DNA from: Oscillatoria sp. PCC 10802
GTDB lineage: Bacteria > Cyanobacteriota > Cyanobacteriia > Cyanobacteriales > Oscillatoriaceae
Direction of reading: 5' to 3'
Length of the DNA stretch: 64,000 nt
NCBI RefSeq assembly: GCF_000332335.1
Contig: NZ_KB235948.1
Span: 4,158,977-4,222,976 of the forward strand
Position 1 is the stretch's first letter; each line of letters starts with the position of its first letter. A program made the position numbers and the translations under genes. The notes beneath the pieces are model-generated. The model saw only the letters and a list, made by a program, of their open reading frames with translations, was not told the DNA's origin and made no database searches. Positions 1 through 43,630 of this stretch are shown piece by piece.

Positions 1-302
1 CTGCAGTGCCCGCACGCGGCATTGCAAATATCGTTCACCGCAAAGCTCATCATGTTCGGCAGATTCTTGTTTTGAATCGTCCGGTACAGGGCGCGAGCGA
101 TGAAGTTGGCCGCCGGCTTGCTGAACAGCGCTGGAGTGGAGAGCGAATAGACCGGGTATCCATTGCGGAAATGGATAATTTTGCTGTGGTTTAGATAAAT
201 TTTATACAGAATATTTACGAAATCCGTGCTGTAGTCAAGCGCCCGGGTAGCCAGAAACCACTTGAGGCGCAGATTATTGATCGCAGAGCGCACGTCAACC
301 AT
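1..302 (-). CDS. radical SAM domain protein, N-terminal ~100 aa only (gene continues past window start)
   Basis: ATG at 302 on the minus strand, open frame verified codon by codon to position 1. Translation ends ...SFAVNDICNAACGHC, a CxxxCxxC radical-SAM cluster motif at residues ~95-102. Not in the ORF track because there is no stop inside the window. Confidence 0.5.
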   Translation of the reverse strand, partial: MVDVRSAINNLRLKWFLATRALDYSTDFVNILYKIYLNHSKIIHFRNGYPVYSLSTPALFSKPAANFIARALYRTIQNKNLPNMMSFAVNDICNAACGHC

Positions 303-417
303 CTATTTGCCCTTCAGCCTAAACTTACTTTTTCCAAAGCTAGACTCACTTTATCACAGCCCCACTCCTGCCTGCCGGTGGCTTCAAAAAAATTAACACT
401 TCTCGGTGTTTAGGCCA

Positions 418-700
418 GGTTTGTAGTTGGGCTTTAGCCCAAAGGTTCGTAGTTGGGCTTTAGCCGAAAGGTTCGTAGTTGGGCTTTAGCCGAAAGGTTC
501 GTAGTTGGGCTTTAGCCCAAAGGTTCGTAGTTGGGCTTTAGCCCAAAGGTTCGTAGTTGGGCTTTAGCCCAAAGGTTCGTAGTTGGGCTTTAGCCCAAAA
601 GTTCGTAGTTGGGCTTTAGCCCAAAAGTTTGTAGTTGGGCTTTAGCCCAAAAGTTTGTAGTTGGGCTTTAGCCCAAAAGTTTGTAGTTGGGCTTTAGCCC
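418..700. repeat. 26-bp tandem repeat array, ~11 units (GGTTCGTAGTTGGGCTTTAGCCCAAA consensus; core hairpin GGGCT-TT-AGCCC)
   Basis: Direct reading: period 26 with point variants (ttcg/tttg, ccg/ccc, aaag/aaaag). No unique spacers between units. Confidence 0.95.
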
Positions 701-807
701 TACAGGGAGCGCGTGAGGTGGGACACAAGGGGGAGCGAACTTATTCCGCGACAGGATGACTGCTATCGCAGTGCCGGTCAGGAGAGATGGACAGCTGCCG
801 GTGCTGT

Positions 808-835
808 GTGGGGACGCGACATATCGCGTCCCCAC
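808..835. other. perfect 12-bp stem / 4-nt loop hairpin GTGGGGACGCGA-CATA-TCGCGTCCCCAC, 59 nt downstream of the minus-strand small gene
   Basis: Seen in sequence. No flanking T/U run, so it is a stable hairpin rather than a canonical intrinsic terminator. Confidence 0.5.
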
Positions 836-893
836 AAGGCGGGATTTGCGATTTCCTGGAAGTGCTGACAGAGAGCAATTCAAACCCCAATTT

Positions 894-1184
894 TCACAGG
901 TACTTCTCCTGTAATGCTTCCCATCGGGCTTGGTCGGGGTCAAAGTCAGGGGAAACGGGTTTAGCGTTGGCGAGCCAATCCCTAAAAATATTAATCCTAC
1001 AGGGGAAGTTTTGAGTTTCAGGCTGTTCGCCTGCCGGTGCCGGTCGGGGGTGACTCGCCTCACCGGCATTTTCAACTTCCTGCAAAACGATCACTTCTAC
1101 ATCTCCAGGAGGTAGCTGGAGCGGTCCTGCAAGAATCAAGTGGCCGTTACTGTCAATTGTTCCTTTCAGTTTGTAGGCTTGCAT
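894..1184 (-). CDS. small protein with AbrB/SpoVT-like swapped-hairpin N-terminus (hypothetical)
   Basis: 96-aa ORF. N-terminal KLKGTIDSNGHLILAGPLQLPPGDVEVIVLQ resembles AbrB/MazE-type looped-hinge helix. Bracketed by two 26-bp tandem arrays. Classification is from memory only. Confidence 0.35.
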   Translation of the reverse strand: MQAYKLKGTIDSNGHLILAGPLQLPPGDVEVIVLQEVENAGEASHPRPAPAGEQPETQNFPCRINIFRDWLANAKPVSPDFDPDQARWEALQEKYL

Positions 1185-1226
1185 GATTCAATCCGTCCTT
1201 GGGTTATGTGGTGCAAAGATGGGCCG

Positions 1227-1317
1227 ATTTGTAGTTGGGATTTAGCCCAAAAGTTCGGAGTTGGGCTTTAGCCCAAAAGTTCGGAGTTGGGCTTTAGCCC
1301 AAAAGTTTGTAGTTGGG
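1227..1317. repeat. second copy of the 26-bp tandem array (~3.5 units)
   Basis: Same unit as 418..700. Confidence 0.9.
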
Positions 1318-1740
1318 CTTTAGCCCTACCGGATCTCTTGCCGGCTGTATCTATTATAGACTATTCCCTGCCAATATAGTCTTGAATTTGCTGCATGTAT
1401 TCCTGGTAAAGTTCCAGAGCCAGACTCATGGCATGGTAAACGATGCGCATGACTCGCGCATCGCTGCGCCAGAGCGCAACGCATTCAGATATTTGGCAAT
1501 CGCCTGCAATTTGCGATTTCCAACTGCGCGGTCAAGGGGAGTCATTTTTTAAGCGTTCCAGAGTTTTGCGGATATACACAGGCTGGGAGCGCCGCAGCTT
1601 TTCAGTATCGGCATAAATCTTCCAAACTTTGAGCTGAAATTTGACAGCGATTTGGGAGCGGGTTTCTGGGTTGAAGGGATCGGAATTTTGCATCATTCTT
1701 CAAGTTTAGGGCACCGGCACTCAGAGTATGGGAGTTCCCT

Positions 1741-1830
1741 TGCTAGGACGATGGACCTCTCTTGCTCGGACGATGGACCTCTGAGTTCGACTGATGGACC
1801 TCCCTTGCTAGGACGATGGACCTCCCTTGC
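1741..1830. repeat. ~21-bp tandem repeat (CTTGCTAGGACGATGGACCTC-like, 4 units; shared core GATGGACCTC)
   Basis: Seen in sequence. A related array occurs at 41850..41965. Confidence 0.85.
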
Positions 1831-1973
1831 TCGTGGACATCTGCCAGCACCTGCCAGATGTCGCGCAAAAGCGCTATTGCACCGGCTTCCCTAAAATGCC
1901 GGCCTTCAGGGAACTCTCCATTTAGGGGCTGGCCCTCTATAAACTCCTCAACCAGATATATAGCACTAGGCAC
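1743..1973 (-). pseudogene. protein kinase fragment (catalytic-domain hinge/alphaE region) interrupted by the GATGGACCTC tandem repeat
   Basis: Translation YLVEEFIEGQPL...ALLRDIWQVLADVHEQG matches the Hanks kinase hinge plus alphaE helix. The reading then degenerates inside the tandem repeat and no HRDLKPEN follows. Confidence 0.3.
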
Positions 1974-2346
1974 TTAGGGCACGAACGTCCCAATCAGTGA
2001 GTGTCTTGCGCCAGAAAAGTCTGGCCAAATCCGCCGCCGCCGAGGTGTCTGACGACTTGACAGCGACCGGCTAGTGTGGATTCTGTCATAGGAGCGAGTA
2101 TTTATTTTGCAGTGGAGTCCGCACCCTCCATCCATACTAACTCACTGCGCTCTGTGTGCTTGGCGGCAGCGGCGGAAGGCGATTGCCGGCGGGAGTCTTT
2201 GGGAGAAACAGGAATTTGTTAAAAAACAATTATGAGTTTTAAAAGTGGGGTGAGTAACAGCCGGCAACTCACCGACTGTAGCCATATTTACTAAAGTGAG
2301 AGGCTCCCCGACAGTCAGCGCTTGCCGGTTGAGCCGGCTGGGACTG

Positions 2347-2397
2347 CATATAGCGGAGAAACCCGGTTTCTTTAAGAAACCGGGTTTCTCACTATAT
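2347..2397. repeat. MITE family A copy (palindromic core GAGAAACCCGGTTTCTTTAAGAAACCGGGTTTCTC with left arm ATATAGCGG)
   Basis: Perfect 35-bp palindrome shared with 8 other loci. Confidence 0.9.
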
Positions 2398-3042
2398 CTG
2401 GGACGGGAGCATGTTAATTTCCGTAAATATACTGAATCGCAGGGGCGATCGATGCGGGTTTTTTCTCTCACCTCTCTGCCCCTCTCCCCTCAATCCTGAG
2501 TTGGGCAATATGTTTGCCTCCCTTCAGATGTCCCCTTGCGGGACTGCCGGCGGAAGTTCTATAATTTCAGTAATTGTTCTGGCTTACTGTCAACTGAATG
2601 CTTGTTTAAAACTCGCCCCAGTCCTTGTTTCCCGCAAAGAGAGCAATTCGTCACCCCCCAAGTCAGGCCGTGCTTGTAACTCCGCCCAGTTGTCGCCCCA
2701 GTCGCTTCAGTAAAAACTTGGATGCAAGCCGGTTAACCTAGAGATTATTAAGTGATAGCTCTGAGGTTCAGATCACATTTAATTCTGACGAGAATCACCG
2801 AAAGGCGTGACGAAAAACACTGTTAAGTACGAGAGAGTAGTGCAGAATGAAGACAGTTAAGGAAAGCCCTCGATCGAGAAAGACGAGGCATCTGGATAAA
2901 TCAAAAGGAAATCAGGGAACTCTATAGGCAAGAGAGCTGTCTAATATCTGGGGTTACTTAGAAAGTTAAACCGAGAGACAGCGAAAAACATATACCGATT
3001 TTAGATAAAGGGCCGTCACCCATACCACTAAGGAGAATTATT

Positions 3043-3264
3043 ATGTCCCGCCCTACTACCCTAGCGCTCGCGATTGCTTTAGCCCTGGCTGCAGCAGGCT
3101 GCACTTCTTCTGTTTCGACTAGATATGTCTCAGAAAAAAGCTTGGGTCAAGAGCGGCTACTTCCGCTTTTAGACGCTTCGGGAAAGAAAGATAAGAATGG
3201 CGGCCAATCAGAGGCGCGATCATTATTTTGTCTGCCTTATCCTTTCCCCCCTTGGTGTATATAA
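3043..3264 (+). CDS. small putative lipoprotein (hypothetical)
   Basis: AAGGAG 7 nt upstream of the ATG. Signal peptide with lipobox LAAAGC. An overlapping alternative frame carries a Pmp3-like ...LSPLGVYK motif, so a frameshift is possible. Confidence 0.35.
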   Translation: MSRPTTLALAIALALAAAGCTSSVSTRYVSEKSLGQERLLPLLDASGKKDKNGGQSEARSLFCLPYPFPPWCI

Positions 3265-3419
3265 AATAAAAGACTGTAAATGACCCGTAAGGGTTGTATT
3301 CCTTAAAGCGAGATATTGGAAGTCTTCTCGCTTGATTTCAGTTCAAGGTTGAGGAAATTACTGATAGACAGAGAGCGGGGGGCGGTGTAGCATAGTGATG
3401 CGTCACCCCCCCTAATGGT

Positions 3420-5819
3420 ATGAAGCTTCCTGTTTGCCGACTCCTGTGGCTAGCTGCGAATTTAACTCTGTGCTGTCTCATTCCGGTCAACTCGGCGCGA
3501 GCGCAAATAGCAGCGGATGGCACCTTACCCACCAGCGTCACCGCCTCGGATAGCGCCAACTTTACTGTCGGGGCAGGCAGTCGCGCCGGAAATAACCTGT
3601 TCCACAGCTTTCGGGAATTTTCCGTGCCGGCTGGTGGCTCGGTTTTTTTCAATAACGCCCCAGAGGTGCTCCATATCATCAGCCGCGTCACGGGTGGAAA
3701 CATCTCCAAGATTGATGGCACCCTGAGAGCCAACGGCACCGCCAACCTGTTTCTGCTCAATCCCAATGGGGTGATATTTGGCCCCAATGCCAGCCTGGAC
3801 ATTGGCGGCTCCTTTTTTGCTTCCAGTGCCAACAGCCTCAAGTTTGCCGATGGCACTGAGTTCAGCGCCACAAACTCCTCTTCGGCTCCGCCCCTGCTGA
3901 CGGTCAGCGTTCCCACCGGCCTGCAATTCGGTTCCAATCCCGGGCCGGTCGTCAATCGCTCCCAGACCACTGTAGTGAATTCACCCACAGGACAGCCGGT
4001 TGGTCTGCAGGTGCAGTCCGAGCGAACCTTAGCTCTGGTGGGGGGTGAAGTGCGTTTAGAGGAGGGCAATCTCACCGCTCCCGGAGGACGGATTGAGTTG
4101 GGGAGTGTGGAAAGCAACAGTTCAGTGAACCTGAACTCGAGCAATAGAGGTTTTGCTCTCAGCTATGAGGGGGTGCAAAATTTCCGAGACATTTACCTGT
4201 CTGGGGGATCTGCGATTGACGTGACCAATTTCAGCCCTGTCGGAGGCAGTGGAGATGTCCGAGTCCAGGGCAGGCGCGTCACACTCACGGGGGGGTCGCA
4301 AATCGCCTCTTTCACCATCGGAGCAGTATCATCTGGCTCTATAGCAATAACGGCTTCAGAGTCAGTAGAACTCATTGGTACTGGGATTAGAAGAAATCCA
4401 ACATATCTGCCGGTTCGCACCAACTTGACTACCACAACAATTGGTGATGGCAATGCCGGAGACTTGACTGTCAGCACCCGACGACTGATTGTCCGAGATG
4501 GTGCCGGAATATTCACTAACTCTCTTTCATTCCCGATGAAGACTCCTCAAGGTCGGGCTGGGAATTTGAGAGTGATGGCCTCGGAATCGGTAGAAATCAG
4601 CGGTAGCGTGCCAATCTTGGGAGCGAGTGGATTAAGTGTTGAAACGAGAACTGGTGGAGATGCCGGAACTTTGGAAATTACCACCGGCAGGCTGATTCTC
4701 CGAGATGGAGCCGAGGTATCAGCAGCCACCTCCGGTGCCGGTCGGGGAGGAACTGTAACAGTAGTGGCTTCGGAGTCTGTGGAGGTCAGTGGCACCGGCA
4801 CAGACAGTCCGGGTCAGGTTTTGCCCAGCCGGCTGAAAGCGACCAGTGCCAGCGCGGGCGATGCCGGCAACTTGACACTCACCACCGGCACCCTCACTGT
4901 CCGCAATGGCGCTGAAATCACCGTCAGCGGCACGGGAACGGGAGGGGCCGGCAACTTAGACATCCAAGCGAGCCGGCTTCAACTCGACACTGCCGGTCGC
5001 CTGAGAGCCGAAACCGCAGCCGGCAGCAGGGGCAGCATTCAGCTAGACACCGGCAGCACACTCCTGCGCCACAACAGTTCTATCACCACAGAAGCCACCG
5101 GCACTGCTTCCGGCGGCAACATCACCATCAGCACCGGCACCATAACCGCCCTGGAAAATAGCAAAATCATCGCTAGTGCCATCGGGGGTGCTGGGGGGAA
5201 CATCCAGATCGACACCCGAGGCATCTTCCGGTCTGCCAACAGTGAAATCACGGCCAGTTCCCAGTTTGGAGTTTCCGGCACCGTCACGATCAGCAACCCA
5301 GAAGTAGACCCCAGTGCCGGATTAGTGGAATTGCCCTCTGCAGTGGAAGACCCCACCCAGCAAATCGCTGTTGGATGCGCCGCCGATCGGGGCAACTCAC
5401 TGACTGTCACCGGACGGGGCGGCTTGCCAGAAGACCCAACGGCCACGATCAGAGGCCAGACCGTTTGGCGAGATTTGCAAGATTTTTCCCAACCGGCACA
5501 GAGCCGCCAAAATTCCTCACAGCCGAATCCCCAGTCGCCGGTGCCCCACGGCGTTGCAGCGAAACAGGACTCACTCTCCAAAACCCCCATCTCTCTCTCC
5601 CCCTCCCGAAGCGCGGGGAGGGGGTTGGGGGGTGGGGTTCAGAATCCCCGGACTGGGCAACCCCTGCCCAACCCCCAACCCCAACTTGTGGAAGCCACCG
5701 GCTGGGCCATCGACGCCCGGGGCAATGTCGAGCTAGTCGCTTCTGTGCCGGCTGCCGGCTCTGCCCCGCACCGGCCACCAGACTGCCACACCGCTCACCA
5801 ACAGGGCAGGGCTCGCTAA
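3420..5819 (+). CDS. filamentous-haemagglutinin N-terminal (TPS/haemagg_act) domain protein, secreted
   Basis: Signal peptide, then the conserved TPS-domain block NNLFHSFREFSVPAGGSVFFNN...ISRVTGGNISKIDGTL...ANLFLLNPNGVIFG. Rest is G/T/S-rich beta-strand repeats. C-terminal GWAIDARGNVELVA. Confidence 0.85.
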   Translation: MKLPVCRLLWLAANLTLCCLIPVNSARAQIAADGTLPTSVTASDSANFTVGAGSRAGNNLFHSFREFSVPAGGSVFFNNAPEVLHIISRVTGGNISKIDGTLRANGTANLFLLNPNGVIFGPNASLDIGGSFFASSANSLKFADGTEFSATNSSSAPPLLTVSVPTGLQFGSNPGPVVNRSQTTVVNSPTGQPVGLQVQSERTLALVGGEVRLEEGNLTAPGGRIELGSVESNSSVNLNSSNRGFALSYEGVQNFRDIYLSGGSAIDVTNFSPVGGSGDVRVQGRRVTLTGGSQIASFTIGAVSSGSIAITASESVELIGTGIRRNPTYLPVRTNLTTTTIGDGNAGDLTVSTRRLIVRDGAGIFTNSLSFPMKTPQGRAGNLRVMASESVEISGSVPILGASGLSVETRTGGDAGTLEITTGRLILRDGAEVSAATSGAGRGGTVTVVASESVEVSGTGTDSPGQVLPSRLKATSASAGDAGNLTLTTGTLTVRNGAEITVSGTGTGGAGNLDIQASRLQLDTAGRLRAETAAGSRGSIQLDTGSTLLRHNSSITTEATGTASGGNITISTGTITALENSKIIASAIGGAGGNIQIDTRGIFRSANSEITASSQFGVSGTVTISNPEVDPSAGLVELPSAVEDPTQQIAVGCAADRGNSLTVTGRGGLPEDPTATIRGQTVWRDLQDFSQPAQSRQNSSQPNPQSPVPHGVAAKQDSLSKTPISLSPSRSAGRGLGGGVQNPRTGQPLPNPQPQLVEATGWAIDARGNVELVASVPAAGSAPHRPPDCHTAHQQGRAR

Positions 5820-5881
5820 GGGAGACGTTAAAATTTATTTAAAAATTTAAGCAAAACCCCCAGTTCCAGACGCGCCCGGTA

Positions 5882-6591
5882 TTGAGTACAATTGGAAATT
5901 ATCCCCAACGCCTACTTGCTGGGAGCGAGGCCGGCTCTATGGTCAAGTCCGATGCGAAAATCCACCTACCAACGAGCGACGAACTCCCTTGCTCGGATGA
6001 CTCTCCTGTGGACAGAGAAGACCAAAATTGGATTCCCAATTTCCTGTTATTCCTGCTGGAATTTATTTGGGGGAATCGCGAGGACGGGTATTTTGAGGCG
6101 GATATGGCGATCGATCGCACCACCGTCGTCAGTCCGCTGGTGCCGGCGGTTCCCGACGGGTTCTTAAGTCTGGTCGATAATGTTCCCCCCATCTCTATCA
6201 GAGCATTGGTTTCCCACACTTGCGGGGGGGAATACGACACCAAAAAGGAAATTTATGCCAATTTAGAGGTGCTGGATTCCCTGGTGTATAACCCGCAAGA
6301 TTGGCGGCAGGAGGGGCAGCAACCCTTTGAACTCTACCGGCCTCGGGAGGTGGCAGCTACCAGAAGCAAATTGGAGAGCATTTCTGGATGCCAGAAATCG
6401 GTTTGGGAATAGGGCGAGTGCAGTTGCTGGTAGGGGGAGCCGAGCGGGAAGTGCTGTGCTGGTACGACCGGCAGGGCGCTCGGGATAGGACCCCCTCTGA
6501 AGCCGCGCAACAAGCTAGGCAACGGCTGGAATTCGCCCAACAGCAACTGGAACGATACCGCATGTTATTTGGGGAGTTACCACAAGAGTAA
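5882..6591 (+). pseudogene. Uma2 family (DUF820) putative endonuclease, frameshifted near 6350-6400
   Basis: Frame A (5882..6412) carries LPTSDELPCSDDSP...DGYFEADM...PPISIRALVSHT...KKEIYANLEV. Frame B (6388..6591) carries the typical C-terminus VLCWYDRQG...AAQQARQRLEFAQQQLERY. The two halves of one family sit in different frames. Confidence 0.55.
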
Positions 6592-6603
6592 CCAAAAACC
6601 ACA

Positions 6604-9336
6604 ATGGCAATTATCCGCTGGCTACTGAGAAGCATTCACTCTGGCGTCAGGTTGGGGCGCGCCCAGCGTAAAACCGCGCCAAGGCAACGGGCCAGACTGT
6701 CTTTTGTCGGGCTGGCATTGCTGGCCCTGCTTCTCGTGACTGCGGTGCTGCCGGCAGTTGCCCGAGAGCCCGCTCCGCCGCCAGAGGTGGCAGGATCGCC
6801 GGTGTCAGCTGCGCCGCAACTGTTGCAGCAGGGAAAACAGCTCTACCAAGGGGGACGGTTTGTTGAAGCCGCCACCGTCTGGCAGCAAGCCGCCATTGAA
6901 TATGAAGCTGCCGGTGAATGGCTAAACCTCGCCCAAATCCTAAACTATCTGTCACTGGCGTATCAAGACTTGGGCGAGTGGGAGCGAGCGCGCGCCGCCA
7001 TCGAGAAAAGCCTGAACCTGCTGTCAAATCAGAACCAGCGAGAGGGAAAGAGCGAGGCAATCCGGGCTCAAGCGCTTAACGCTTTTGGCCGGCTGCAACT
7101 GGCAACTGGACAGACAGAAGCGGCTTTAGAAACTTGGAAAGCCGCCGAAGCCGCCTACCTGGCAGCGGGGAATCAGACCGGCAGGCTGGGAAGCCAGATT
7201 AACCAAGCCCAAGCCTTGCAATACCTGGGCCACTACCGGCAGGCAAAAACGCTCTTAGAGAAACTGCTCGATGAACTGCTCGCTCAGCCGGACACTGCCC
7301 TGAAAGCCGACGGATTGCGGAGTTTGGGCACAGTCCTGCAGCGAGTGGGAGATTTGCTGCGCTCGAAAGAAATCTTGGAGCAAAGTTGGGCGATTAGCCA
7401 GCGCCTCGGTGCCACTGCCGGCACTGGTGCGGCACTGCTGGGCATCGGCAATATTGCCAGAGACCTAGATCAATATGATGTCGCTCTGGCGTACTACCAG
7501 CAGGCGGCAAAAATGGCACAAGACCCCCTGGCTCGGGCGCAAGCGCAGCTCAACCAGCTCAGCCTGCTGGTGGACACCGAAAAGCGGTCATTAGCCAGCG
7601 CCCTCGTGCCGCAAATCGAGTCGGACCTGTCTGAACTGCCGCCCTCTCGCGCCTCTGTTGACGCCCGGGTGAATCTGGCAGAAAGCCTGATGAAGCTGTC
7701 TGCCGGTGGGGGCGAAGCATTCGGGCCGCGGACCTCTGGGGGCACGCCAGCAGGTGCCGGCCCTCTGGCGTCGCCCTTGCAGGGATTAGGGAACAAACAG
7801 CAAACGCCAACAGCCGGGCCCTTGAAAGTCGCCGGACTGCTGGCAACAGCCGTGCGAGAAGCCCGACAGCTGGGCGATCCGCGAGCTGAAGCGTCCGCTC
7901 TCAATCAGCTGGCAAAGCTCTACGAACAGACCCAGCAGTGGGAAGAGTCCCAAAACCTGGCGCAACTTTCGCTGCAAATTGCCCAGAAGATTGACGCCAC
8001 CGATCAGGTGGCTCGCGCCGCGTGGCAGCTGGGCCGCACTCTCAAAGAAAAAGGGGATATCGCTGCGGCAACAGCGGCTTATACTGAAGCAGTGAATGCG
8101 CTCGCTAACCTGCGCAGTGACTTAGTAGCGATTAATCGCGAGGTTCAGTTTAACTTCAAAGAAAGTGTGGAGCCGGTGTACCGAGAACTGGTGAGCCTGC
8201 TGCTGGGAGCGGGTGCCGGTCAAGCCAACCTCAGGAAAGCTCGCGAGGTGATTGAAGCCCTGCAACTGGCAGAATTGGACAACTTCTTTAAAGACGCTTG
8301 CGTGGAAACTCATCCCGTGCGGGTGGAGGGGATTGACGCACAAGCTGCCGTCATCTATCCAATTATTTTGAGCGACCGGCTAGAAGTGATTGTGTCCCTG
8401 CCCAATTCACCCAGCCGCCACTACGCCACCCCACTCCCTGGCCCGGAAATCGAAAAAAATATAAAAAAATTATATTCTTCTCTTTATATAGGGTATTCTA
8501 GTAATGAGCGATTGCGGCTCTCCCAAAAAGTTTACGACTGGCTGATCCGACCGGCTGAGGCGGATCTCGCCAGTCACGGCATCAAAACCCTGGTGTTTGT
8601 CCTGGATGGGGTCTTTCGCTCTTTGCCAATGGCTGCCCTTTACGACGGAAAGCAGTATCTCGTCGAGAAATACAGCGTCGCGATCAGCCCAGGGTTGCAG
8701 CTATTCCCACAGGGACTGTCAAGAAATCAGCTAAAAATCTTAGCGGTTGGGCTTGCCGAGGCGCGTCAGGGGTTTTCCGCCTTGCCGGGAGTGGAGGCAG
8801 AAGTCAAACAAATTGCTGTCTTAGCAAATTCTAAGGTACTTCTGAACCGGCAGTTCACGCGCGCCAGTTTTAAAGACCAGATAAACGGAACAGAATTTCC
8901 AGTCGTTCACCTGGCCACTCACGGTCAATTCAGCTCCAATCCTGAAGAGACATTTTTGCTCACGTGGGATGGCCGGATCGCGGTAAAAGATTTAGACCGC
9001 TTGCTGCAAGCGAGAGGGCAAGAAAATCTTAACCCCATTGAACTGCTGGTTTTAAGTGCCTGCCAAACAGCAGCCGGCGACGGGCGAGCCGCACTGGGAT
9101 TGGCGGGATTCGCACTGCGGTCAGGGGCCAGAAGTACCTTGGCAACCCTGTGGGCGGTCAGCGACAAATCCACGGCGAACTTGATGACTGAGTTTTACCA
9201 GAAGTTAACCCAGCCACAGCAGAATATTACCAAAGCCGAAGCGCTCCGTCAAGCTCAACTGGCCCTGCTGAAAAATCCGCAGTACAGCCACCCCTATTTT
9301 TGGGCCCCTTTTGTATTAGTGGGAAACTGGCTGTGA
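6604..9336 (+). CDS. TPR-repeat / CHAT-domain protein (caspase-like protease fold), N-terminal signal/anchor
   Basis: 910 aa. N-terminal hydrophobic segment, ~350 aa of TPR-like repeats, C-terminal CHAT signature (...HLATHGQF...LLVLSACQTA...YFWAPFVLVGNW). Confidence 0.9.
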   Translation: MAIIRWLLRSIHSGVRLGRAQRKTAPRQRARLSFVGLALLALLLVTAVLPAVAREPAPPPEVAGSPVSAAPQLLQQGKQLYQGGRFVEAATVWQQAAIEYEAAGEWLNLAQILNYLSLAYQDLGEWERARAAIEKSLNLLSNQNQREGKSEAIRAQALNAFGRLQLATGQTEAALETWKAAEAAYLAAGNQTGRLGSQINQAQALQYLGHYRQAKTLLEKLLDELLAQPDTALKADGLRSLGTVLQRVGDLLRSKEILEQSWAISQRLGATAGTGAALLGIGNIARDLDQYDVALAYYQQAAKMAQDPLARAQAQLNQLSLLVDTEKRSLASALVPQIESDLSELPPSRASVDARVNLAESLMKLSAGGGEAFGPRTSGGTPAGAGPLASPLQGLGNKQQTPTAGPLKVAGLLATAVREARQLGDPRAEASALNQLAKLYEQTQQWEESQNLAQLSLQIAQKIDATDQVARAAWQLGRTLKEKGDIAAATAAYTEAVNALANLRSDLVAINREVQFNFKESVEPVYRELVSLLLGAGAGQANLRKAREVIEALQLAELDNFFKDACVETHPVRVEGIDAQAAVIYPIILSDRLEVIVSLPNSPSRHYATPLPGPEIEKNIKKLYSSLYIGYSSNERLRLSQKVYDWLIRPAEADLASHGIKTLVFVLDGVFRSLPMAALYDGKQYLVEKYSVAISPGLQLFPQGLSRNQLKILAVGLAEARQGFSALPGVEAEVKQIAVLANSKVLLNRQFTRASFKDQINGTEFPVVHLATHGQFSSNPEETFLLTWDGRIAVKDLDRLLQARGQENLNPIELLVLSACQTAAGDGRAALGLAGFALRSGARSTLATLWAVSDKSTANLMTEFYQKLTQPQQNITKAEALRQAQLALLKNPQYSHPYFWAPFVLVGNWL

Positions 9337-9374
9337 GCGCTAAATCATTAACATTTGAATTGCGAGGTTTAATT

Positions 9375-10379
9375 ATGGTAAAATACAGAAGATCCGTTTC
9401 TCAAACAGTTTTTTACCTCTCCCTAGCCGGGACGCTGGCCACCGGCACCGGCCTGTGGGAGCCCGCACAGGCGCTCCAGCCGGTGTCAGGGGAGAAATGG
9501 CCGGGCGGTTCCCTCACCAGCTTGCAATTCAAGCCGCCGGGAGACGCCGCACCTGGCTCCACCGACGGGGGGGGGACCCGGGGTGATGTCAAATTCCAGC
9601 CGCCGGGGGACAGCACACCGGCATCCACCAACGGGGGGGGAACCCGGGGCGATGTCAAATTCCAGCCGCCGGGGGATAGCGCGCCGGCGTCCACCAACGG
9701 GGGGGGAACCCGGGGCGATGTCAAATTCCAGCCGCCGGGAGACGCCTCGCCCACGAACACCACCGGAGGAGGCACTCGCGGACCAGAATTCGAGCCGCCC
9801 TCCGATGCCGCACCGGTGTCCACCGTCGGGGCTGGAACTCGCAGCGAAGAGCTCTCGCAGCTGATCCCGCTGATTCCGGAGAATAAAATAGGGCGCACAG
9901 TGGCGGCGCGCCCGACATTTTTTGTTTACGTGCCTGCAACTTCCTCAAAAGAGGTATTTTTTAGCCTGCAAGACGAAAACAGAAACGTTCAGTACCAAAC
10001 TACCCTCAAAATGTCCGGTCAGGGGGGAATTGTCAGAGTAACTCTTCCTGCGGACGCGCCGGAACTGGAGATAGGGAAAAATTATATGTGGTTCTTCGCC
10101 ACTATCAATGAGGGAGACATTCTCCGCCCGGACAGTCGTGGGGTCAGCGGGTGGGTGAAGCGAGTGGAAGCCCCAACCAGCAGCGCCCAAAATTCATCCC
10201 TGACTCCTGTAGCGCTCGCCACCTTGTATGCCGAGTCTGGCATTTGGTACGATACAGTGGCAGTGCTCGGTGCGGCTAAACAGGCGCAGCCTGGAGACGC
10301 CACCCTAGCAGCTGAGTGGAAAGAGCTGTTGGAGCAGGTGGGACTGAAGGGGATCGCCACTCAGCCCCTAATCGACTGA
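9375..10379 (+). CDS. DUF928 domain protein with four perfect 20-aa N-terminal repeats
   Basis: ATG at 9375 with signal peptide. KFQPPGDSxPASTNGGGTRGDV x4 encoded by near-identical 60-nt repeats (9530-9790). C-terminal domain as in cyanobacterial DUF928 (family recall, not computed). Confidence 0.7.
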   Translation: MVKYRRSVSQTVFYLSLAGTLATGTGLWEPAQALQPVSGEKWPGGSLTSLQFKPPGDAAPGSTDGGGTRGDVKFQPPGDSTPASTNGGGTRGDVKFQPPGDSAPASTNGGGTRGDVKFQPPGDASPTNTTGGGTRGPEFEPPSDAAPVSTVGAGTRSEELSQLIPLIPENKIGRTVAARPTFFVYVPATSSKEVFFSLQDENRNVQYQTTLKMSGQGGIVRVTLPADAPELEIGKNYMWFFATINEGDILRPDSRGVSGWVKRVEAPTSSAQNSSLTPVALATLYAESGIWYDTVAVLGAAKQAQPGDATLAAEWKELLEQVGLKGIATQPLID

Positions 10380-10398
10380 GAGGGGTTATTCTGAGAGC

Positions 10399-12615
10399 AT
10401 GTGGCAAAAGCTGAGACAGCGAATTGGGGAGTGGGGAGGGGTTTTGGCGATCGCTCCTAGCGTGGCAGCACTGGCCATTGCCGGGAGCGCCGCTGGAGTT
10501 TTCCAGATGCTCGAATGGGCAACCCTCGACCAATTTTTTCACCAGCGTCCAGCAGAGCCCATTGACCGGCGCATTGTGCTGGTGACAATTGGCGAGTCAG
10601 ATATCAGTAAGGTCGGGCAATGGCCCATGCCCGACCGGGTGATGGCGCAGCTGCTGCGCAACGTGAGAGCCCAGCAGCCCAGAGCCATCGGTATGGATAT
10701 CTATCGGGACTTGCCGGTGGAACCGGGGCACAAAGAATTAGTGCAGGTGTTTCAGTCCACACCGAACCTGATTGGCATCGAAAAAGTCGGCGGCAACAGG
10801 ATCGCACCGCCGCCGGCGCTCAGCAAGTCCGACAGAGTGGCGGCGTCCGATCTGGTGTTAGATGCGGATGGCAAAGTGCGCCGAGCTCTGATATTAATTG
10901 GCGCTGAAGGCGGTCAATTTCGAGAGGGGCTGGGGGCGAAGCTGGCGCTTGCCTACCTGGAAAAGGAGGGCGTGTCTCTGCGCTCAATTGACGATAAGAA
11001 AAAAATCTATGGGTTGGGGCGTGCCGTGTTTGTGCCCCTGACGGGGAATGAGGGAGGCTATGTTGCCGGTGACACCGGCGGCTACCAGATTTTGTTAAAC
11101 TATCGCGGAGGGCTTGACAAGTTTCCCAGTATATCCATGACTGATGTGCTGGAAAACCGCATCCCCCCTGATTTGATGCGCAACCGCGCGGTTTTAATTG
11201 GCTCAACTGCAGAGAGCCTCAAGGACGTTTTCCAAACGCCCTACAGCAGCACTCTCTTCCGAAGCCCTGCCCTAACTCCAGGCGCAGTCATTCACGCGAA
11301 TATAACCAGCCAGATTTTGAGTGCCGCTCTGCAAGGGCGTCCGATGCTCCGAACTCCTACCAAAACCCTGAATTGGCTGTGGATTTTGGCTTGGTCTTTC
11401 ATCGGAGCGAGCGGGTGCTTGAAATTGCTGCAGACGAAAGTGTTTAAAAAGAATGTCTTTTTTGGAGGAGCCCTGTGCGGTACTTTAGTAGCAGGTAGCG
11501 CCCTCACCGGCACCTGCTATCTGGCGTTTCTGGGCGGCTGGATCGTCCCCGTATTTTCCCCCCTCGTCGCGCTGACCGCATCGGCCATTTTAATGGCCAA
11601 CTACCACAGCCACTGGGAATTAAAACTGGCTTGCGAGAAATTAGAAAAAGCCAATGAGCAATTAGAGGAATATTCTCGCACCCTTGAAATTAAAGTGACG
11701 GAGCGCACCGGAGAGCTGAAAAGCGCCCTCGACCATCTCAAAGCCACCCAAACCCAACTGATTCAAGCCGAAAAAATGGCTGCCTTGGGGCAGCTGGTTG
11801 CCGGCATCGCTCACGAAATTAACAACCCCACAAGCTTTATCTACGGGAATGTCGCCCATGCGGAAGAGTACGCCTCTCAATTAGTGAGCCTATTAGCCCT
11901 CTACCAGAAGCACTACCCGCCGGCACCAGATATTCGAGAATTTATTGAAGAGATAGATTTAGATTACATCCTAGAAGACTTACCGAAGTTGCTGGCTTCT
12001 ATGAAAACGGGAGCCTCGCGAATTCGGGAAATTGTTAAGTCTCTGAGAACGTTTTCAAGGCTGGACGAATCGGAGCTCAAAAAAGTTGATATCCACGAGG
12101 GGATTGACAGCACGTTAATGATCCTGCAAAACCGCTTAAAACAGCGGAGCGGCAGGCCAGAAATTATGGTAGTAAAAGAGTACGGGGAATTGCCTATGGT
12201 GCCGTGCTACGCAGGGCAGCTGAATCAGGTGTTTATGAACCTGCTGACGAATGCGATTGACGCTCTGGACGAGCGAAATACCAAGCTGAAACCCGAGGAA
12301 ATTGCGGCCAATCCCAGCGTGATTAAAATTGCCACTGCGGTGAGGGATAGCTCACAAATTGTGATCGCAATTTCTGACAATGGCCCTGGAATCCCCGAAT
12401 CGATACAGCAGCGGTTATTTGACCCCTTCTTCACCACCAAACCTGTCGGGAAAGGCACGGGATTGGGGCTGTCTATCTCACACTCCATCGTCGTAGAACA
12501 GCACGGCGGGCACTTGCGCCTCCACTCAGCACCCGGTCAGGGAAGCGAATTTCGCATCGAGATTCCCATACAACCGTCCAAGCTGCGCAAGCCGGTGCAG
12601 CCTCAGAAGGTCTAA
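10399..12615 (+). CDS. CHASE2-domain sensor histidine kinase
   Basis: N-terminal CHASE2 block (IVLVTIGESDI...WPMPD...AIGMDIY), 3-4 TM helices, coiled coil, HisKA H-box AGIAHEINNP, HATPase_c G-boxes. Confidence 0.9.
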   Translation: MWQKLRQRIGEWGGVLAIAPSVAALAIAGSAAGVFQMLEWATLDQFFHQRPAEPIDRRIVLVTIGESDISKVGQWPMPDRVMAQLLRNVRAQQPRAIGMDIYRDLPVEPGHKELVQVFQSTPNLIGIEKVGGNRIAPPPALSKSDRVAASDLVLDADGKVRRALILIGAEGGQFREGLGAKLALAYLEKEGVSLRSIDDKKKIYGLGRAVFVPLTGNEGGYVAGDTGGYQILLNYRGGLDKFPSISMTDVLENRIPPDLMRNRAVLIGSTAESLKDVFQTPYSSTLFRSPALTPGAVIHANITSQILSAALQGRPMLRTPTKTLNWLWILAWSFIGASGCLKLLQTKVFKKNVFFGGALCGTLVAGSALTGTCYLAFLGGWIVPVFSPLVALTASAILMANYHSHWELKLACEKLEKANEQLEEYSRTLEIKVTERTGELKSALDHLKATQTQLIQAEKMAALGQLVAGIAHEINNPTSFIYGNVAHAEEYASQLVSLLALYQKHYPPAPDIREFIEEIDLDYILEDLPKLLASMKTGASRIREIVKSLRTFSRLDESELKKVDIHEGIDSTLMILQNRLKQRSGRPEIMVVKEYGELPMVPCYAGQLNQVFMNLLTNAIDALDERNTKLKPEEIAANPSVIKIATAVRDSSQIVIAISDNGPGIPESIQQRLFDPFFTTKPVGKGTGLGLSISHSIVVEQHGGHLRLHSAPGQGSEFRIEIPIQPSKLRKPVQPQKV

Positions 12616-12635
12616 AAATATAGCGTTTCGCTCGT

Positions 12636-12720
12636 TCCCAGGCTCCGCCTGGGAACGCCGTCCTGGAGGCTCTGCCTCCTTTGGGCAGATAGGAAGATTA
12701 AAAGCCTAAAAGCTTAGTAA
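12636..12720. repeat. ~88-bp dispersed repeat (family E), copy 1; inverted partner at 15700..15790
   Basis: CGTTCCCAGGCTCCGCCTGGGAACGCCGTCCTGGAGGCTCTGCCTCCTTTGGGCAGATAGGAAGATTAAAAGCCTAAAAGCTTA is ~97% identical to the reverse complement of 15700..15790. Confidence 0.9.
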
Positions 12721-12775
12721 ATTGTGGATGCGTGGATTTTGGATGCCTGGATTTATAGCAATGGACAGTTAGTGC

Positions 12776-12875
12776 AAGGACATTGGGACAGGCGAGACGC
12801 CTGTCCTACGCCTTATTTCCCTAGGGCAGGCGTTTCCTCCGACCCCCCAAGGTCTAATGTCCTAATCAATTTGGC
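12776..12875. repeat. family B hairpin element (CATTGGGACAGGCGAGACGCCTGTCC...GGTCTAATGTCCTAA)
   Basis: Related copies at 19108, 20771, 31216, 32147, 34369 (two tandem), 48995, 49150, 57838. Confidence 0.85.
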
Positions 12876-13072
12876 TCGACCGGCAACTGTCCCAGCCCCC
12901 AGAGGCGATCGCAAGCAGAGAGGAGGTGCCGGCGGCACCGGCACTGTTAGTTTGCCGCCGGCAGCGCGCCTTGAGAACTCTAAAAATTCTCAACCTTCAT
13001 CCCAGAGACAGATCCGACTGCTCGACAATTGTTTTATTATATTACTATTCAACTTACTGTCACCGTTTGATT

Positions 13073-14581
13073 ATGCCTTTTCCAAGAGCGAGCGGGATTT
13101 TGCTTCACCCCACCTCCTTTCCCAGCCCATACGGGATTGGCGACTTGGGGAAAGACGCTTATGATTTCATTGACTTCTTGGCAGAAAGCAAGCAGCGGCT
13201 GTGGCAGATTTTGCCCCTCGGACCGGCGGGATATGGCAATTCGCCCTACATGTCTTATTCAGCCTTTGCCGGCAACCCCCTGCTGATCAGTCCGGAACGG
13301 CTCAAAGAAAAAGGGCTGCTGTCTGAGGCGGACCTCAGCAATTATCCGGTGTTTCCCGATGAAAGCGTAGATTTCGATCGGGTGATTCCCGCCAAGCTAG
13401 CCTTGCTCTGGCAAGCCTTCCAAAACTCCGACCCGAATGCTTCCCAGTATCACAGCTTTTGCGAGCGCCAATCTTACTGGCTAGATGACTTTGCCTTGTT
13501 TATGGCGCTCAAAGAAAAACACAATCAAGAACCCTGGTACGAGTGGGAAGACAAGCTGAAAAAGCGCAAACCAGAAGCCCTCAGCAAGGAACAGGAAGAC
13601 CTCAGCGACCGGATTAACTTCCACAAATTCCTGCAGTTTGAGTTTTTCAGCCAGTGGTCAGCGCTGAGGCGGTACGCCAAAGCTCGCGACATCCTGATTA
13701 TAGGCGATATCCCCATCTATGTGGGGGGAGACAGCGCCGACGTGTGGGCCAATCAGAGCGTGTTTTGCCTGGATGCCGAGACGGGTAAACCCAAACTGAA
13801 AGCCGGTGTGCCACCGGATAAATTCGAGCCAGAAAACGGCCAGATGTGGGGCAATCCAATTTATAATTGGAAGCAGCTGGAAATGGATGATTTCTCCTGG
13901 TGGGTGCAGCGCTTCCGGACGCTGCTGGATTATGTGGACGTGATTCGCATCGACCACTTCCGGGGGTTTGAAGCTTACTGGGAAATACCCGGGGAAGACA
14001 GCGTTGCCAAGAATGGACGGTGGGTGGAAGCGCCGGGAGAACTGCTGTTTCAAGTGGTCAGAGAAAAACTGGGAGTGCTGCCGATTATTGCCGAAGATTT
14101 GGGCGTGATTACCAGGAAAGTCAGGGCGCTGCGAGATCGGTTTGGATTTCCAGGGATGAAAATTTTGCAATTTGCTTTCGAGCCATTGCCTGACTTGCCT
14201 TTCTTACCTTTCAACTATACCACCCCAAACTGTGTGGTTTACACCGGCACCCACGACAACGACACCACCCAAGGCTGGTACAGCAAACTTCCCGACAAGA
14301 ATAAAAACACAGTGTGGCTGTATTTGTTGGGTAAAAAGCGATCCGAGTGCGATGAAAGTGAAATTCACTGGGAATTCCTCAGGCTAGCTTTGAGTTCGAT
14401 TGCCAATCAAGCAATCTTTCCCCTGCAAGATGTCTTGGGTTTGGGTGCGGAAGCGCGCATGAATTTGCCCGGTTCCTTGGGAAATTGGTGGAGCTGGCGA
14501 TACCAGCGCGATGCCTTAACGCCGGCAATCAGCAATCGCCTCAGGAGTCTGACTGAAATCTACGCTCGCACCGGCATATAA
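13073..14581 (+). CDS. malQ: 4-alpha-glucanotransferase (amylomaltase)
   Basis: MPFPRASGILLHPTSFPSPYGIGDLG...WQILPLGP...GNSPY is canonical MalQ. The ORF-track start at 12926 is an upstream extension. Confidence 0.9.
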   Translation: MPFPRASGILLHPTSFPSPYGIGDLGKDAYDFIDFLAESKQRLWQILPLGPAGYGNSPYMSYSAFAGNPLLISPERLKEKGLLSEADLSNYPVFPDESVDFDRVIPAKLALLWQAFQNSDPNASQYHSFCERQSYWLDDFALFMALKEKHNQEPWYEWEDKLKKRKPEALSKEQEDLSDRINFHKFLQFEFFSQWSALRRYAKARDILIIGDIPIYVGGDSADVWANQSVFCLDAETGKPKLKAGVPPDKFEPENGQMWGNPIYNWKQLEMDDFSWWVQRFRTLLDYVDVIRIDHFRGFEAYWEIPGEDSVAKNGRWVEAPGELLFQVVREKLGVLPIIAEDLGVITRKVRALRDRFGFPGMKILQFAFEPLPDLPFLPFNYTTPNCVVYTGTHDNDTTQGWYSKLPDKNKNTVWLYLLGKKRSECDESEIHWEFLRLALSSIANQAIFPLQDVLGLGAEARMNLPGSLGNWWSWRYQRDALTPAISNRLRSLTEIYARTGI

Positions 14582-14599
14582 AGGTTGCCTCGCCGGCAG

Positions 14600-14680
14600 T
14601 ATATAGCGGTTTCCAGTTGGATAAAATACGCATGAGAAACCCGGTTTCTTAAAGAAACCGGCTTTCTCAGTCCCTCAGTC
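14600..14680. repeat. MITE family A copy
   Basis: ATATAGCGG arm plus palindromic core, 19 bp downstream of the malQ stop. Confidence 0.9.
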
Positions 14681-14709
14681 TCGCTGAAAATAGCCGGTTT
14701 AAACCTTAT

Positions 14710-15168
14710 TTACTGATAGTTAAAAGCAGGTTTTCTCTGCCCCACCACTTCTGGCGCACCGGCGGCGAGACGCAGCTGGTCGCAGCAAACGGCAAGCCAA
14801 GGCTGACCTAAACCTAACATAGCAAAAGAACTCTCTGCGGGGATTTCTAACTGAGAGCCAATCAGACCCAGACGCGACTCAAACTCACCTTGAAAGAAGA
14901 GGAAATCAGAATTTAGGGCGCTCAAAACCGGCATTTTAAAAGGCAGCGGCAAGCTTAAGTTTTGCTGAGTGTGGGTGAGGCGGCACAGGAGCCGGTCGCC
15001 CTGACGGACAGTAACACGAGATCGCTCGCCCTTTTCCCATGTAAACTCAGCCAGTTCCTTAGGCAATCCCCAAATTTCTCTGCCGCCGGCAGCCGAATCC
15101 GCACTGTCAACATAGATGTGAGAAATCCAGCCCCCCCATTTGCCTGAATAGCTCACCAAACTAGCCAC
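14710..15168 (-). CDS. acetoacetate decarboxylase (ADC) family protein, short/possibly 5'-truncated
   Basis: DSADSAAGGREIWGLPKELAEF matches the ADC-family core. No ATG; frame opens with GTG and runs ~25 codons further upstream without a start. Flanked by MITE-A copies on both sides. Confidence 0.4.
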   Translation of the reverse strand: MASLVSYSGKWGGWISHIYVDSADSAAGGREIWGLPKELAEFTWEKGERSRVTVRQGDRLLCRLTHTQQNLSLPLPFKMPVLSALNSDFLFFQGEFESRLGLIGSQLEIPAESSFAMLGLGQPWLAVCCDQLRLAAGAPEVVGQRKPAFNYQ

Positions 15169-15262
15169 AACAATTAACTCGCTGTATTCGAGTGCGGAAC
15201 CGGCACCGTAGGATGCCAGATAAACCTCCCTGCCTGCTGGCAGGCAAGCGACAGGATTTTTC

Positions 15263-15375
15263 TATTATAGCAGCTCTCAGTTAGATGAAGTACGCTTCAG
15301 AAACCCGGTTTCTTTAAGAAACCGGGTTTCTCAGGCTCTCACTAATATGAGAAATGCGATATAGCAGTATGCACT
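15263..15375. repeat. MITE family A, full-length copy (~100 bp, both arms)
   Basis: TATTATAGCAGCTCTCAGTTAGATGAAGTACGCTTCAG + core + GCTCTCACTAATATGAGAAATGCGATATAG. Confidence 0.9.
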
Positions 15376-15699
15376 TAGGTTAGAACATTAGAGCTTTAGG
15401 GGGGCGTCCCGCCTGCCCTACGTCTATATAGCAGTAAGCATTTAAGAAACCTACATTCCGGCCTCCCTTCCTCCCCCGCTCCCGAAGTTTCTATTGTTCT
15501 AACCAATATGACTGCTGCTATAAAGCATCGGGGAGACGGTGAGAGCCAGGTGCCACCGGCACCCGCGCCGGCACCGGCATCCTTCCCAGACAAAACAAAT
15601 TGGCATCTGCTGTGCGTGCCGGTGTTCCTTTCACCAACAAAAAAGGGCTGATAACCGGCGGGTTCGCCACAATTATCAGCCCTTTTGTCAGGTAAGCTT

Positions 15700-15790
15700 T
15701 TAGGCTTTTAATCTTCCTATCTGTCCAAAGGAGGCAGAGCCTCCAGGACCGCGTTCCCAGGCGGAGCCTGGGAACGAGGGAACGAGGAAA
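15700..15790. repeat. family E repeat, inverted copy 2
   Basis: Reverse complement ~97% identical to 12636..12720. Confidence 0.9.
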
Positions 15791-15807
15791 ACCCCTAAAA
15801 CCGCTGA

Positions 15808-43160: not shown

Positions 43161-43630
43161 ACACAGCAGCCGCCCCTCTCCGGGGCGCTGCGCCCTTTGC
43201 CCCGGCAAACCCGAAAAAAACTTTCTGTTGCTGCCCCGCGCCCGAAACAGCACAGTTAGCGCCCCTTCCCCGTATCCCGTGTCTGCTATTTCCCTATCAA
43301 CCCACTCAAACGCTTCCAAACATAGCGCGGGCGAAAATAGCGCCGGTACTTGGCAGCCGCTTCTTTCCCCACCAGCAGCAACCCCAGCCAGAAAGCGACT
43401 TCTGCCAAAACCGCCAGCACTGGCACCAGCAGAGCTTTTTGCCCCACTGTCAAAGGCAAAACAGGCAAAAGCGCCACTCCCCCCAAGGGAAAAACGAGAA
43501 AACGATTAAAACCGGCCCCTATTTCCGTATATTTCCTAACTCTCACAGACCTCAAACCGGGGGAATCGGAATTTTCCCCAATATCCAATCCCCCAATCCC
43601 CAAATCCCGGCACTCAACCGCTCTCAGGGG

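Follow-up and report, generated by a model that had tools for sequence, protein, structure and literature searches.

The 64,000-nucleotide (nt) stretch of Oscillatoria sp. PCC 10802 analysed here (contig NZ_KB235948.1, positions 4,158,977 to 4,222,976; 'the window' denotes this whole 64-kb stretch) carries on its forward strand the genes of a TpsA-type exoprotein with a TPS secretion domain, a TPR-repeat protein ending in a CHAT protease domain, a DUF928 protein and a sensor histidine kinase with a CHASE2 domain. These four genes form a module conserved among cyanobacteria, and we propose, tentatively and at somewhat less than an even chance, that it spans the cell envelope and couples the cell-surface exoprotein to CHASE2 signalling via periplasmic proteolysis and a DUF928 adaptor. 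The initial annotation of the window had suggested a cell-surface proteolytic or signalling system, or else a contact-dependent one: the former remains the best class of explanation, whereas the latter is disfavoured by a conserved exoprotein tail and by the lack of a recurrent immunity gene. Full-text literature searches found no paper describing the four-gene module, in line with the earlier remark that its function had not been established. The single parts would not surprise a specialist; their conserved combination makes the question of what CHASE2 senses accessible to direct experiment.

Under the proposed scheme, the TpsA-type β-helical protein would be exported through a TpsB pore encoded outside the window, while its C-terminal tail (Cys, TG[R/K]GGLP, a proline-rich linker, a β-hairpin and a second Cys) would be retained in the periplasm. 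There, the TPR-CHAT protein would bind and cut linear motifs, those of the TPS tail and/or the FxPPGDxAPxxTxGGGxRG units at the N terminus of the DUF928 protein. DUF928 would act as a periplasmic FN3-like adaptor or co-sensor of the CHASE2 receptor and relay the cleavage state, and the receptor would signal inward through a cytoplasmic output that depends on the locus, here an orphan histidine kinase. Overall, the cell would obtain an outside-in report on whether a surface filament or adhesin is anchored, engaged or released, with adhesion, aggregation or gliding behaviour as the likely targets. The scheme builds on the linkage of the genes, the integrity of their domains, the conservation of their motifs and the interchangeability of the receptor outputs, together with extracytoplasmic targeting: TPS, CHAT and DUF928 proteins have N-terminal signal sequences, and the CHASE2 domain lies between a first transmembrane (TM) segment and three further ones. 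Moreover, two of the partners carry conserved linear motifs in regions predicted to be disordered, namely the TPS tail and the DUF928 units.

Recurrence of the four genes in cyanobacteria

DUF928 homologues were aligned and one genome per species was scanned, yielding 79 distinct loci, all of them cyanobacterial (homologous loci compared here are designated by L-numbers). The taxa include Oscillatoria, Kamptonema, Microseira, Moorena, Symploca, Coleofasciculus, Nostoc and Cylindrospermum, and further Geitlerinema, Prochlorothrix, Spirulinaceae and Lusitaniella. Neighbours were counted by tblastn with the domains of the window, the denominators varying by arrangement. CHAT was found directly upstream of DUF928 on the same strand at 63 of 73 loci and CHASE2 directly downstream at 61 of 75, so that the CHAT-DUF928-CHASE2 neighbourhood, which the initial annotation had mentioned, proved real. 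TPS, too, truly belongs to the conserved set: it was located upstream of DUF928 at 40 of 57 loci, and colinearity of the whole quartet was seen at 34 of 54. Independent gene calls combined with Pfam labels returned the same gene order, and at four of the five loci so labelled the last three genes were separated by short gaps of 3–92 nt. Furthermore, when 892 flanking open reading frames (ORFs) were clustered all-against-all, these four families alone were present in most loci, the next families being found in at most 13. Recurring at 79 independent cyanobacterial loci, the adjacency exceeds chance.

Several genomes carry two or three paralogous modules (for example, L012 plus L045; also L014, L061 and L071), and L013 consists of two in tandem. 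Departures from the common arrangement were also found. On a plasmid of Pseudanabaena, the set is joined by TpsB and differently ordered (TpsB-CHASE2-TPS-CHAT-DUF928), and in the unicellular Gloeothece PCC 7424, CHAT adjoins DUF928-CHASE2 and is divergent from it. Sub-modules exist too: TpsB-TPSx4-CHAT in O. acuminata, which has the same TPS tail and lacks DUF928 and CHASE2; TPS-CHAT-DUF928 without CHASE2; and DUF928-CHASE2 without CHAT or TPS. Because these three combinations occur, DUF928 can be viewed as the hub shared by both halves of the module.

The sub-modules bear directly on an alternative in which two independent systems sit side by side, co-located or co-regulated with no molecular hand-off between them: a TPS plus CHAT pair for adhesin maturation or release, working like CdrA/LapG or FhaB/SphB1, and a DUF928 plus CHASE2 sensor. 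Both halves do exist alone (the O. acuminata genes and the DUF928-CHASE2 pairs), and in the window 785 nt separate TPS from CHAT. We nonetheless consider this reading unlikely, if worth serious attention, since all four genes are colinear at 34 of 54 loci, the set was kept after the change of gene order in Pseudanabaena, and CHAT-DUF928 pairs without CHASE2 show DUF928 to associate with both halves. The spacing of the last three genes also argues against it, with 38 nt between CHAT and DUF928 and 19 nt between DUF928 and CHASE2 in the window. The 'tiny gaps' first reported for the whole array therefore hold for these two junctions and not for that between TPS and CHAT.

Two additional observations concern the genes around TPS. 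At 13 loci, a large secreted protein with DUF11/CLIPPER, SdrD_B and RTX calcium-binding repeats is encoded, mostly directly 5′ of the module TPS (L027, L043, L053-L055, L060, L061, L064, L077 and others; also L006, 846-3677). In the distant TPS-CHAT-DUF928 locus L097, an 877-aa protein without a Pfam match (2595-5228) is encoded between TPS and CHAT.

Domains, motifs and competing interpretations

The coordinates, forward orientation and domains first assigned to the four genes agree with our ORF calls and Pfam E-values (Table 1). In the exoprotein, the TPS domain covers the full PF05860 model (E=1.6e-67) and also matches TIGR01901 (E=6.2e-26). Its Sec signal, identified by inspection, consists of an N-terminal hydrophobic segment followed by SARA↓Q. 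Behind the repetitive shaft, the tail presents, in order, PEVDPSxGLVELP, Cys653, NSFxVTG-R-GGLPxDP, a variable linker rich in Pro, Ser and Gln, the β-hairpin VEATGW..G.VELVA and Cys789. Both the 51 module TPS proteins and the 89 tail sequences compared share these motifs: C653, G665, G667 and G668 never vary, conservation of R666 and C789 is at least 90%, and the R666 position is Lys in the Pseudanabaena tail. Cys653 and Cys789 are the sole cysteines of the mature protein. In the AlphaFold2 (AF2) model, the tail is disordered and mostly of low confidence, except for the hairpin with a predicted local distance difference test (pLDDT) score of 85-95. A protein search with the tail returned short fragments only.

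No TpsB/ShlB transporter gene was found in the 64-kb window, either by Pfam scans of all large ORFs or by tblastn with six cyanobacterial TpsB proteins (best E 0.27, no match). The absence noted in the initial annotation thus stands, yet it is not the oddity it was taken for. TpsB (ShlB/POTRA_2) is linked to the module at only 3 of 79 loci, and also in L090 and L092; in two of the three, of a Microcoleaceae metagenome-assembled genome (MAG) and of Okeania, it lies between CHAT and DUF928 (L033, 6123-7835; L035, 7180-8907). Cyanobacterial homologues of TpsB number more than 4263 at E≤1e-20, and in both cases looked up (a Kamptonema sp. MAG and Nostoc carneum) the gene stands alone among housekeeping genes. 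As cyanobacterial TpsB is abundant, often standalone and linked in a minority of loci, an unlinked TpsB is the normal arrangement here.

The protease (CHAT PF12770, E=4.6e-66) starts with a long basic region and a 19-residue hydrophobic segment, then AVA↓RE, after which come about 500 residues of TPR. Its His/Cys dyad is intact: none of 62 module CHAT proteins departs from H773 or C820, and in 68 the motifs that hold these residues are at least 95% conserved. By these sequence marks the protease is catalytically competent. A search of solved structures with the protein sequence matched the TPR region alone and no CHAT structure. HetF of Nostoc and Csx29 of the type III-E CRISPR 'Craspase' are cytoplasmic TPR-CHAT proteases; the window protein is like them in having TPR fused to CHAT with the His/Cys dyad, and differs from them in its signal peptide or anchor and in its envelope gene partners.

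The DUF928 protein matches PF06051 over model positions 2-184 of 184 (E=7e-54); the longest ORF opens at TTG 9300, and the annotated start is ATG 9375. Its sequence is 100% identical to an annotated protein of Kamptonema formosum. The 'four perfect 20-aa repeats' originally described are in fact five units with a 22-aa period, three near-identical and two diverged, part of which was detected by Tandem Repeats Finder at 9526-9743 (66-nt period, 3.3 copies, 89% matches). According to the AF2 model, residues 160-334 (pLDDT >90) fold into a seven-strand sandwich plus four helices, and the unit region is disordered except for aa 51-60 (pLDDT 82), a part of the first unit that is docked on the DUF928 domain. 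A logo compiled from 377 units in 83 proteins gave a spacing of 22 or 23 aa, with the Arg and the Gly at −3 from it conserved at 100%.

The N-terminal FxPPxxxAPxxTxGGxxRG unit after the signal peptide is a feature defined in the present analysis and not a curated criterion. A search with the DUF928 domain yielded 4640 cluster representatives; among 147 representatives, the unit is present once in 89 and several times in 32. Most of the top matches inspected, of 230-260 aa, have exactly one unit, which directly adjoins the signal peptide and often precedes a Cys. Most of the family having one N-terminal unit, the subfamily of the window, with unit counts from 0 to 12, therefore amplified an ancestral N-terminal motif. 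Paralogous modules of one genome carry distinct unit variants, GGG[T/V/A/I]RG, each of which is conserved between species.

The units have prompted a peptide-signal interpretation, which we judge decidedly unlikely: the DUF928 protein would be a polyprotein-like precursor cut by CHAT after the Arg of each unit, the peptide or new N terminus would be the CHASE2 ligand, and the TPS protein would serve as scaffold or trigger. With similarly low confidence, the tandem repeats might constitute a pro-ligand for which CHAT is triggered by the state of the TPS filament, the paralogous modules with their GGG[T/V/A/I]RG variants then being separate, non-interfering channels. Several clan CD proteases (metacaspases, gingipain R and separase) cleave after Arg, which is compatible with such processing. 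So are the family-wide presence of the unit at the mature N terminus and its amplification here (mostly with a 22- or 23-aa period), its disorder in the AF2 model, the distinct variants of paralogous modules within a genome, and a description of CHASE2 ligands as unknown (PMC10581220). However, cleavage of the units by CHAT is hypothetical, the number of units is not clearly tied to the presence of CHAT, and tandem amplification could result from replication slippage in a low-complexity linker. The partial docking of the first unit on the DUF928 domain, furthermore, would suit a structural element no less than a ligand.

In the receptor (PF05226, E=6.1e-68), hydrophobic segments at about aa 13-35 and 326-400 delimit a layout of TM1, the periplasmic CHASE2 domain (aa 23-337), three TM segments (about aa 326-400), a coiled coil, HisKA (E=4.9e-7; H-box IAHEINNP, H472) and HATPase_c (aa 607-725, E=3.5e-26). 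The kinase was initially noted to lack an adjacent response regulator, and indeed Pfam found zero Response_reg matches among the window ORFs scanned. CHASE2 is kept in all 52 module receptors, and the output is PP2C (SpoIIE) in 24, kinase in 22 (15 of them with a receiver domain), cyclase in 14 and GGDEF in 1; hence, the sensor is constant and the output domain is interchangeable between loci. The adjacency of CHASE2 and DUF928 has been remarked on for Nostoc punctiforme in one paper (PMC5587647), and what CHASE2 recognises is described as unknown (PMC5192318, PMC10581220).

At 13 loci, receptors with PP2C output are followed by genes for a DUF6272 protein and a STAS/SiaC-like protein (3′ of CHASE2 in L021, L026, L030, L039-L042, L044, L052, L059, L071 and L077), and genes for MscS-type channels often come next after this cassette. 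SiaABCD of P. aeruginosa is a partner-switch system, and by analogy the CHASE2-PP2C/DUF6272/STAS set looks like a SiaABC-like partner-switch cassette, the likeness being the PP2C output with DUF6272 and STAS/SiaC-like proteins in these 13 related loci. It differs in the sensor domain, and the analogy does not extend to the window copy, which has a kinase output.

The nature of the outputs also helps in weighing the direction of signalling. LapD is an inner-membrane cyclic di-GMP receptor that mediates control of LapG. A comparable inside-out control, whereby the cytoplasmic state of the CHASE2 receptor, via its periplasmic domain and DUF928, would sequester or free CHAT and so set adhesin retention, is consistent with the conserved cysteine pair of the TPS tail. 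We find it highly improbable, because on the cytoplasmic side these receptors carry transmitter domains (histidine kinase, cyclase, PP2C), unlike the degenerate GGDEF-EAL receiver of LapD, and because interchangeable outputs suit an input module better.

CdiA-like contact-dependent inhibition or toxin delivery, or a caspase-like cell-death or anti-phage system, is barely credible and both were rejected: the TPS domain, the caspase fold of CHAT and weak PADLOC matches of CHAT to BovA and a generic TPR model (E about 1e-5) speak for them, but the C terminus of TPS, which is short and mostly disordered, shows conservation at 51 loci and is not a polymorphic toxin, clustering of flanking ORFs revealed no small ORF for immunity that recurs, CHAT carries a signal for export from the cytoplasm, TPS, DUF928 and CHASE2 had no match to a PADLOC defence family, and PADLOC plus NCBIfam on the module proteins returned no system-level family.

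The preferred reading, a coupling of the exoprotein to CHASE2 through CHAT and DUF928, has several points against it. Beyond the linkage of the genes, all of it is what we infer, including the molecular interactions, cleavage sites, signalling direction and physiological output. Since the sub-modules occur separately, direct coupling of TPS/CHAT to DUF928/CHASE2 is not a requirement. The presence of an adjacent CHAT gene is not reflected in how many units DUF928 has, although only four loci are informative in this respect, and cleavage by CHAT after Arg is a guess by analogy with further members of clan CD. A disulfide between Cys653 and Cys789 would place TGRGGLP inside the loop, where a cut alone would not free the protein. 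With TpsB not found in the window, export of the window TPS protein is assumed. Finally, a scan for promoter and terminator consensus sequences found no discriminating signal inside the module and is uninformative on operon structure.

Surroundings of the module in the window

The distance between TPS and CHAT is filled by a broken reading frame (5882-6591, forward strand), which had been annotated as a frameshifted Uma2 nuclease gene in the same transcription unit. The remnant had no Pfam match even at E≤10, an intact PF05685 domain being absent from the window copy. Its origin is clear from Oscillatoria princeps (L009), the locus of which shares MalQ and DnaK synteny with the window and has an intact 241-aa Uma2 gene at the same position (6357-7082; Pfam E=2.9e-13). 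Window positions 5939-6588 align to that gene in two frames with 69-76% identity, the lesions being an 18-aa deletion by which part of the core was lost, a 7-aa deletion and a frameshift near 6337-6349. In Oscillatoria sp. Prado101 (L008, 2770-3035), Uma2 is reduced to two short remnants, and in the other 76 of the 79 loci none was found. Being restricted to three related genomes, in intact, frameshifted and remnant form, Uma2 therefore represents a clade-specific insertion into the TPS-CHAT spacer that is decaying. The pseudogene is thus confirmed, and Uma2 as a functional member of the module was rejected: it is limited to the window and its two closest relatives and has decayed in two of the three.

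Directly 5′ of TPS, a 73-aa lipoprotein-like ORF is kept in L009 (62% identity) and L046 (38%). A profile search with this ORF gave no family match; judging from its sequence and position, it is a possible accessory gene to TPS. In the roughly 3.4 kb upstream of the module (1-3400), which may consist of degraded or non-coding sequence, no ORF exceeds 135 aa; within this part, a short ORF (1743-1973, reverse strand) encodes a putative protein-kinase fragment. Rfam gave no match in window positions 1-16000. Consensus scans placed a weak promoter-like site before TPS and a terminator-like hairpin after the kinase gene, the latter being a possible 3′ end of the transcription unit. The module is followed by MalQ on the forward strand and DnaK on the reverse strand.

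Farther along the window, an 863-aa protein (53197-55788, reverse strand) has a Ser/Thr kinase domain fused to a large right-handed β-helix (Beta_helix/NosD). At 39171-41146 (reverse strand), a 215-aa ORF ends in an overlap with the gene of a 443-aa AAA_21/AAA_15 (AbiEii-like/OLD-like) ATPase, and the two may be a small defence or toxin-antitoxin pair. Two forward-strand ORFs, 26696-28201 (501 aa) and 42608-43831 (407 aa), had no Pfam match.

Table 1. Coordinates of the module and of adjoining features in the window
Feature	Position	Strand	Basis	Details
Lipoprotein-like ORF, directly 5′ of TPS	3043-3264	+	ORF listing	73 aa; LAAAGC lipobox
Promoter-like site	3365-3393	+	consensus scan only	27 nt 5′ of the TPS start codon; 9/12 matches, weak
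TpsA-type exoprotein	3420-5819	+	Pfam scan	799 aa; signal aa 1-28, TPS secretion domain aa 28-282, repetitive shaft, conserved tail
TPS C-terminal tail	5298-5816	+	motif conservation	aa 627-799
TGRGGLP motif of the tail	5409-5429	+
β-Hairpin VEATGW..G.VELVA of the tail	5688-5741	+
Uma2-family nuclease pseudogene	5939-6591	+	two-frame alignment to the intact L009 gene
Predicted periplasmic TPR-CHAT cysteine protease	6604-9336	+	Pfam, hydropathy	910 aa; signal peptide/anchor aa 34-52, TPR about aa 70-600, CHAT aa 638-908
CHAT catalytic motifs	8908-9069	+		HLATHG (His773, 8920-8922); LSACQT (Cys820, 9061-9063)
DUF928 protein	9375-10379	+	PF06051	334 aa; signal about aa 1-33 (AQA↓LQ), five 22-aa units, DUF928 domain
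Five tandem 22-aa units	9522-9848	+		consensus FxPPGDxAPxxTxGGGTRGxV; Arg aa 69, 91, 113, 135, 156
DUF928 domain proper	9852-10376	+	AF2 model	seven-strand FN3/Ig-like β-sandwich plus four-helix cap
CHASE2 sensor histidine kinase	10399-12615	+	Pfam, sequence and hydropathy inspection	738 aa
Periplasmic CHASE2 domain	10465-11409	+
HisKA with H472	11812-11829	+
Terminator-like hairpin	12784-12808	+	consensus scan only	170 nt past the kinase stop codon; 11-bp stem with 7 GC pairs

Relation to known systems and implications

By function, the proposed module resembles adhesin proteolysis of the Lap/CdrA kind joined to an accessory-dependent CHASE2 sensor; by membership, it is neither. With CdrA/CdrB and LapG/LapD of Pseudomonas aeruginosa it would share a TpsA exoprotein with a periplasmic C-terminal tail. 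In CdrA, this tail is the substrate of LapG, a periplasmic cysteine protease controlled by cyclic di-GMP (PMC5422565), and a cysteine hook is thought to anchor CdrA in CdrB (PMC11898600). The window tail, with its exactly two conserved cysteines and its conserved linear motifs, is like the CdrA tail cut by LapG. On the other hand, the window protease is a TPR-CHAT enzyme of clan CD and not of the LapG family, a CHASE2 transmitter takes the place of the cyclic di-GMP receptor LapD at the membrane, DUF928 is extra, the tail has no TAAG, TpsB is unlinked and the signal likely runs outside-in. The module may therefore work like Lap but is no member of it, having no LapG, LapD or TAAG.

FhaB/FhaC of Bordetella is alike in its TPS domain and β-helical shaft. 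The FhaB prodomain has a proline-rich stretch and a conserved extreme C terminus. This C-terminal prodomain stays intracellular according to Noel et al. 2012, as cited in PMC5422565, and the maturation proteases of FhaB are encoded away from the tps operon (PMC5422565). The window TPS protein differs in being much shorter (799 aa), in having an adjacent protease gene, of another family, and in its linked sensor.

A third comparison is offered by the Burkholderia 'BiofilmReg' operon of response regulator, LysM-FecR, CHASE2 kinase and DUF4136 genes, in which a secreted periplasmic accessory is likewise encoded directly 5′ of a CHASE2 kinase (PMC5192318). There the accessory is LysM-FecR and not DUF928, a response regulator is present, and TPS and CHAT genes are not.

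CHASE2 is a widespread bacterial sensor domain, for which the module offers genetically testable candidates as input partners: DUF928, a periplasmic caspase-like protease and a surface exoprotein, all of which recur across cyanobacterial orders, mostly in filamentous forms. If the pro-ligand interpretation were true, it would supply the first CHASE2 ligand together with its activation mechanism, and a case of protease-made peptide signalling in the periplasm of multicellular cyanobacteria. If instead the coupling through CHAT and DUF928 is true, it would provide a route from surface events to kinases, cyclases and phosphatases, a role for DUF928, a family of thousands, and the first envelope function of a CHAT protease, and it would extend adhesin control by periplasmic proteolysis beyond LapG/LapD. 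Gliding, aggregation and mat formation are behaviours to which the module may be relevant.

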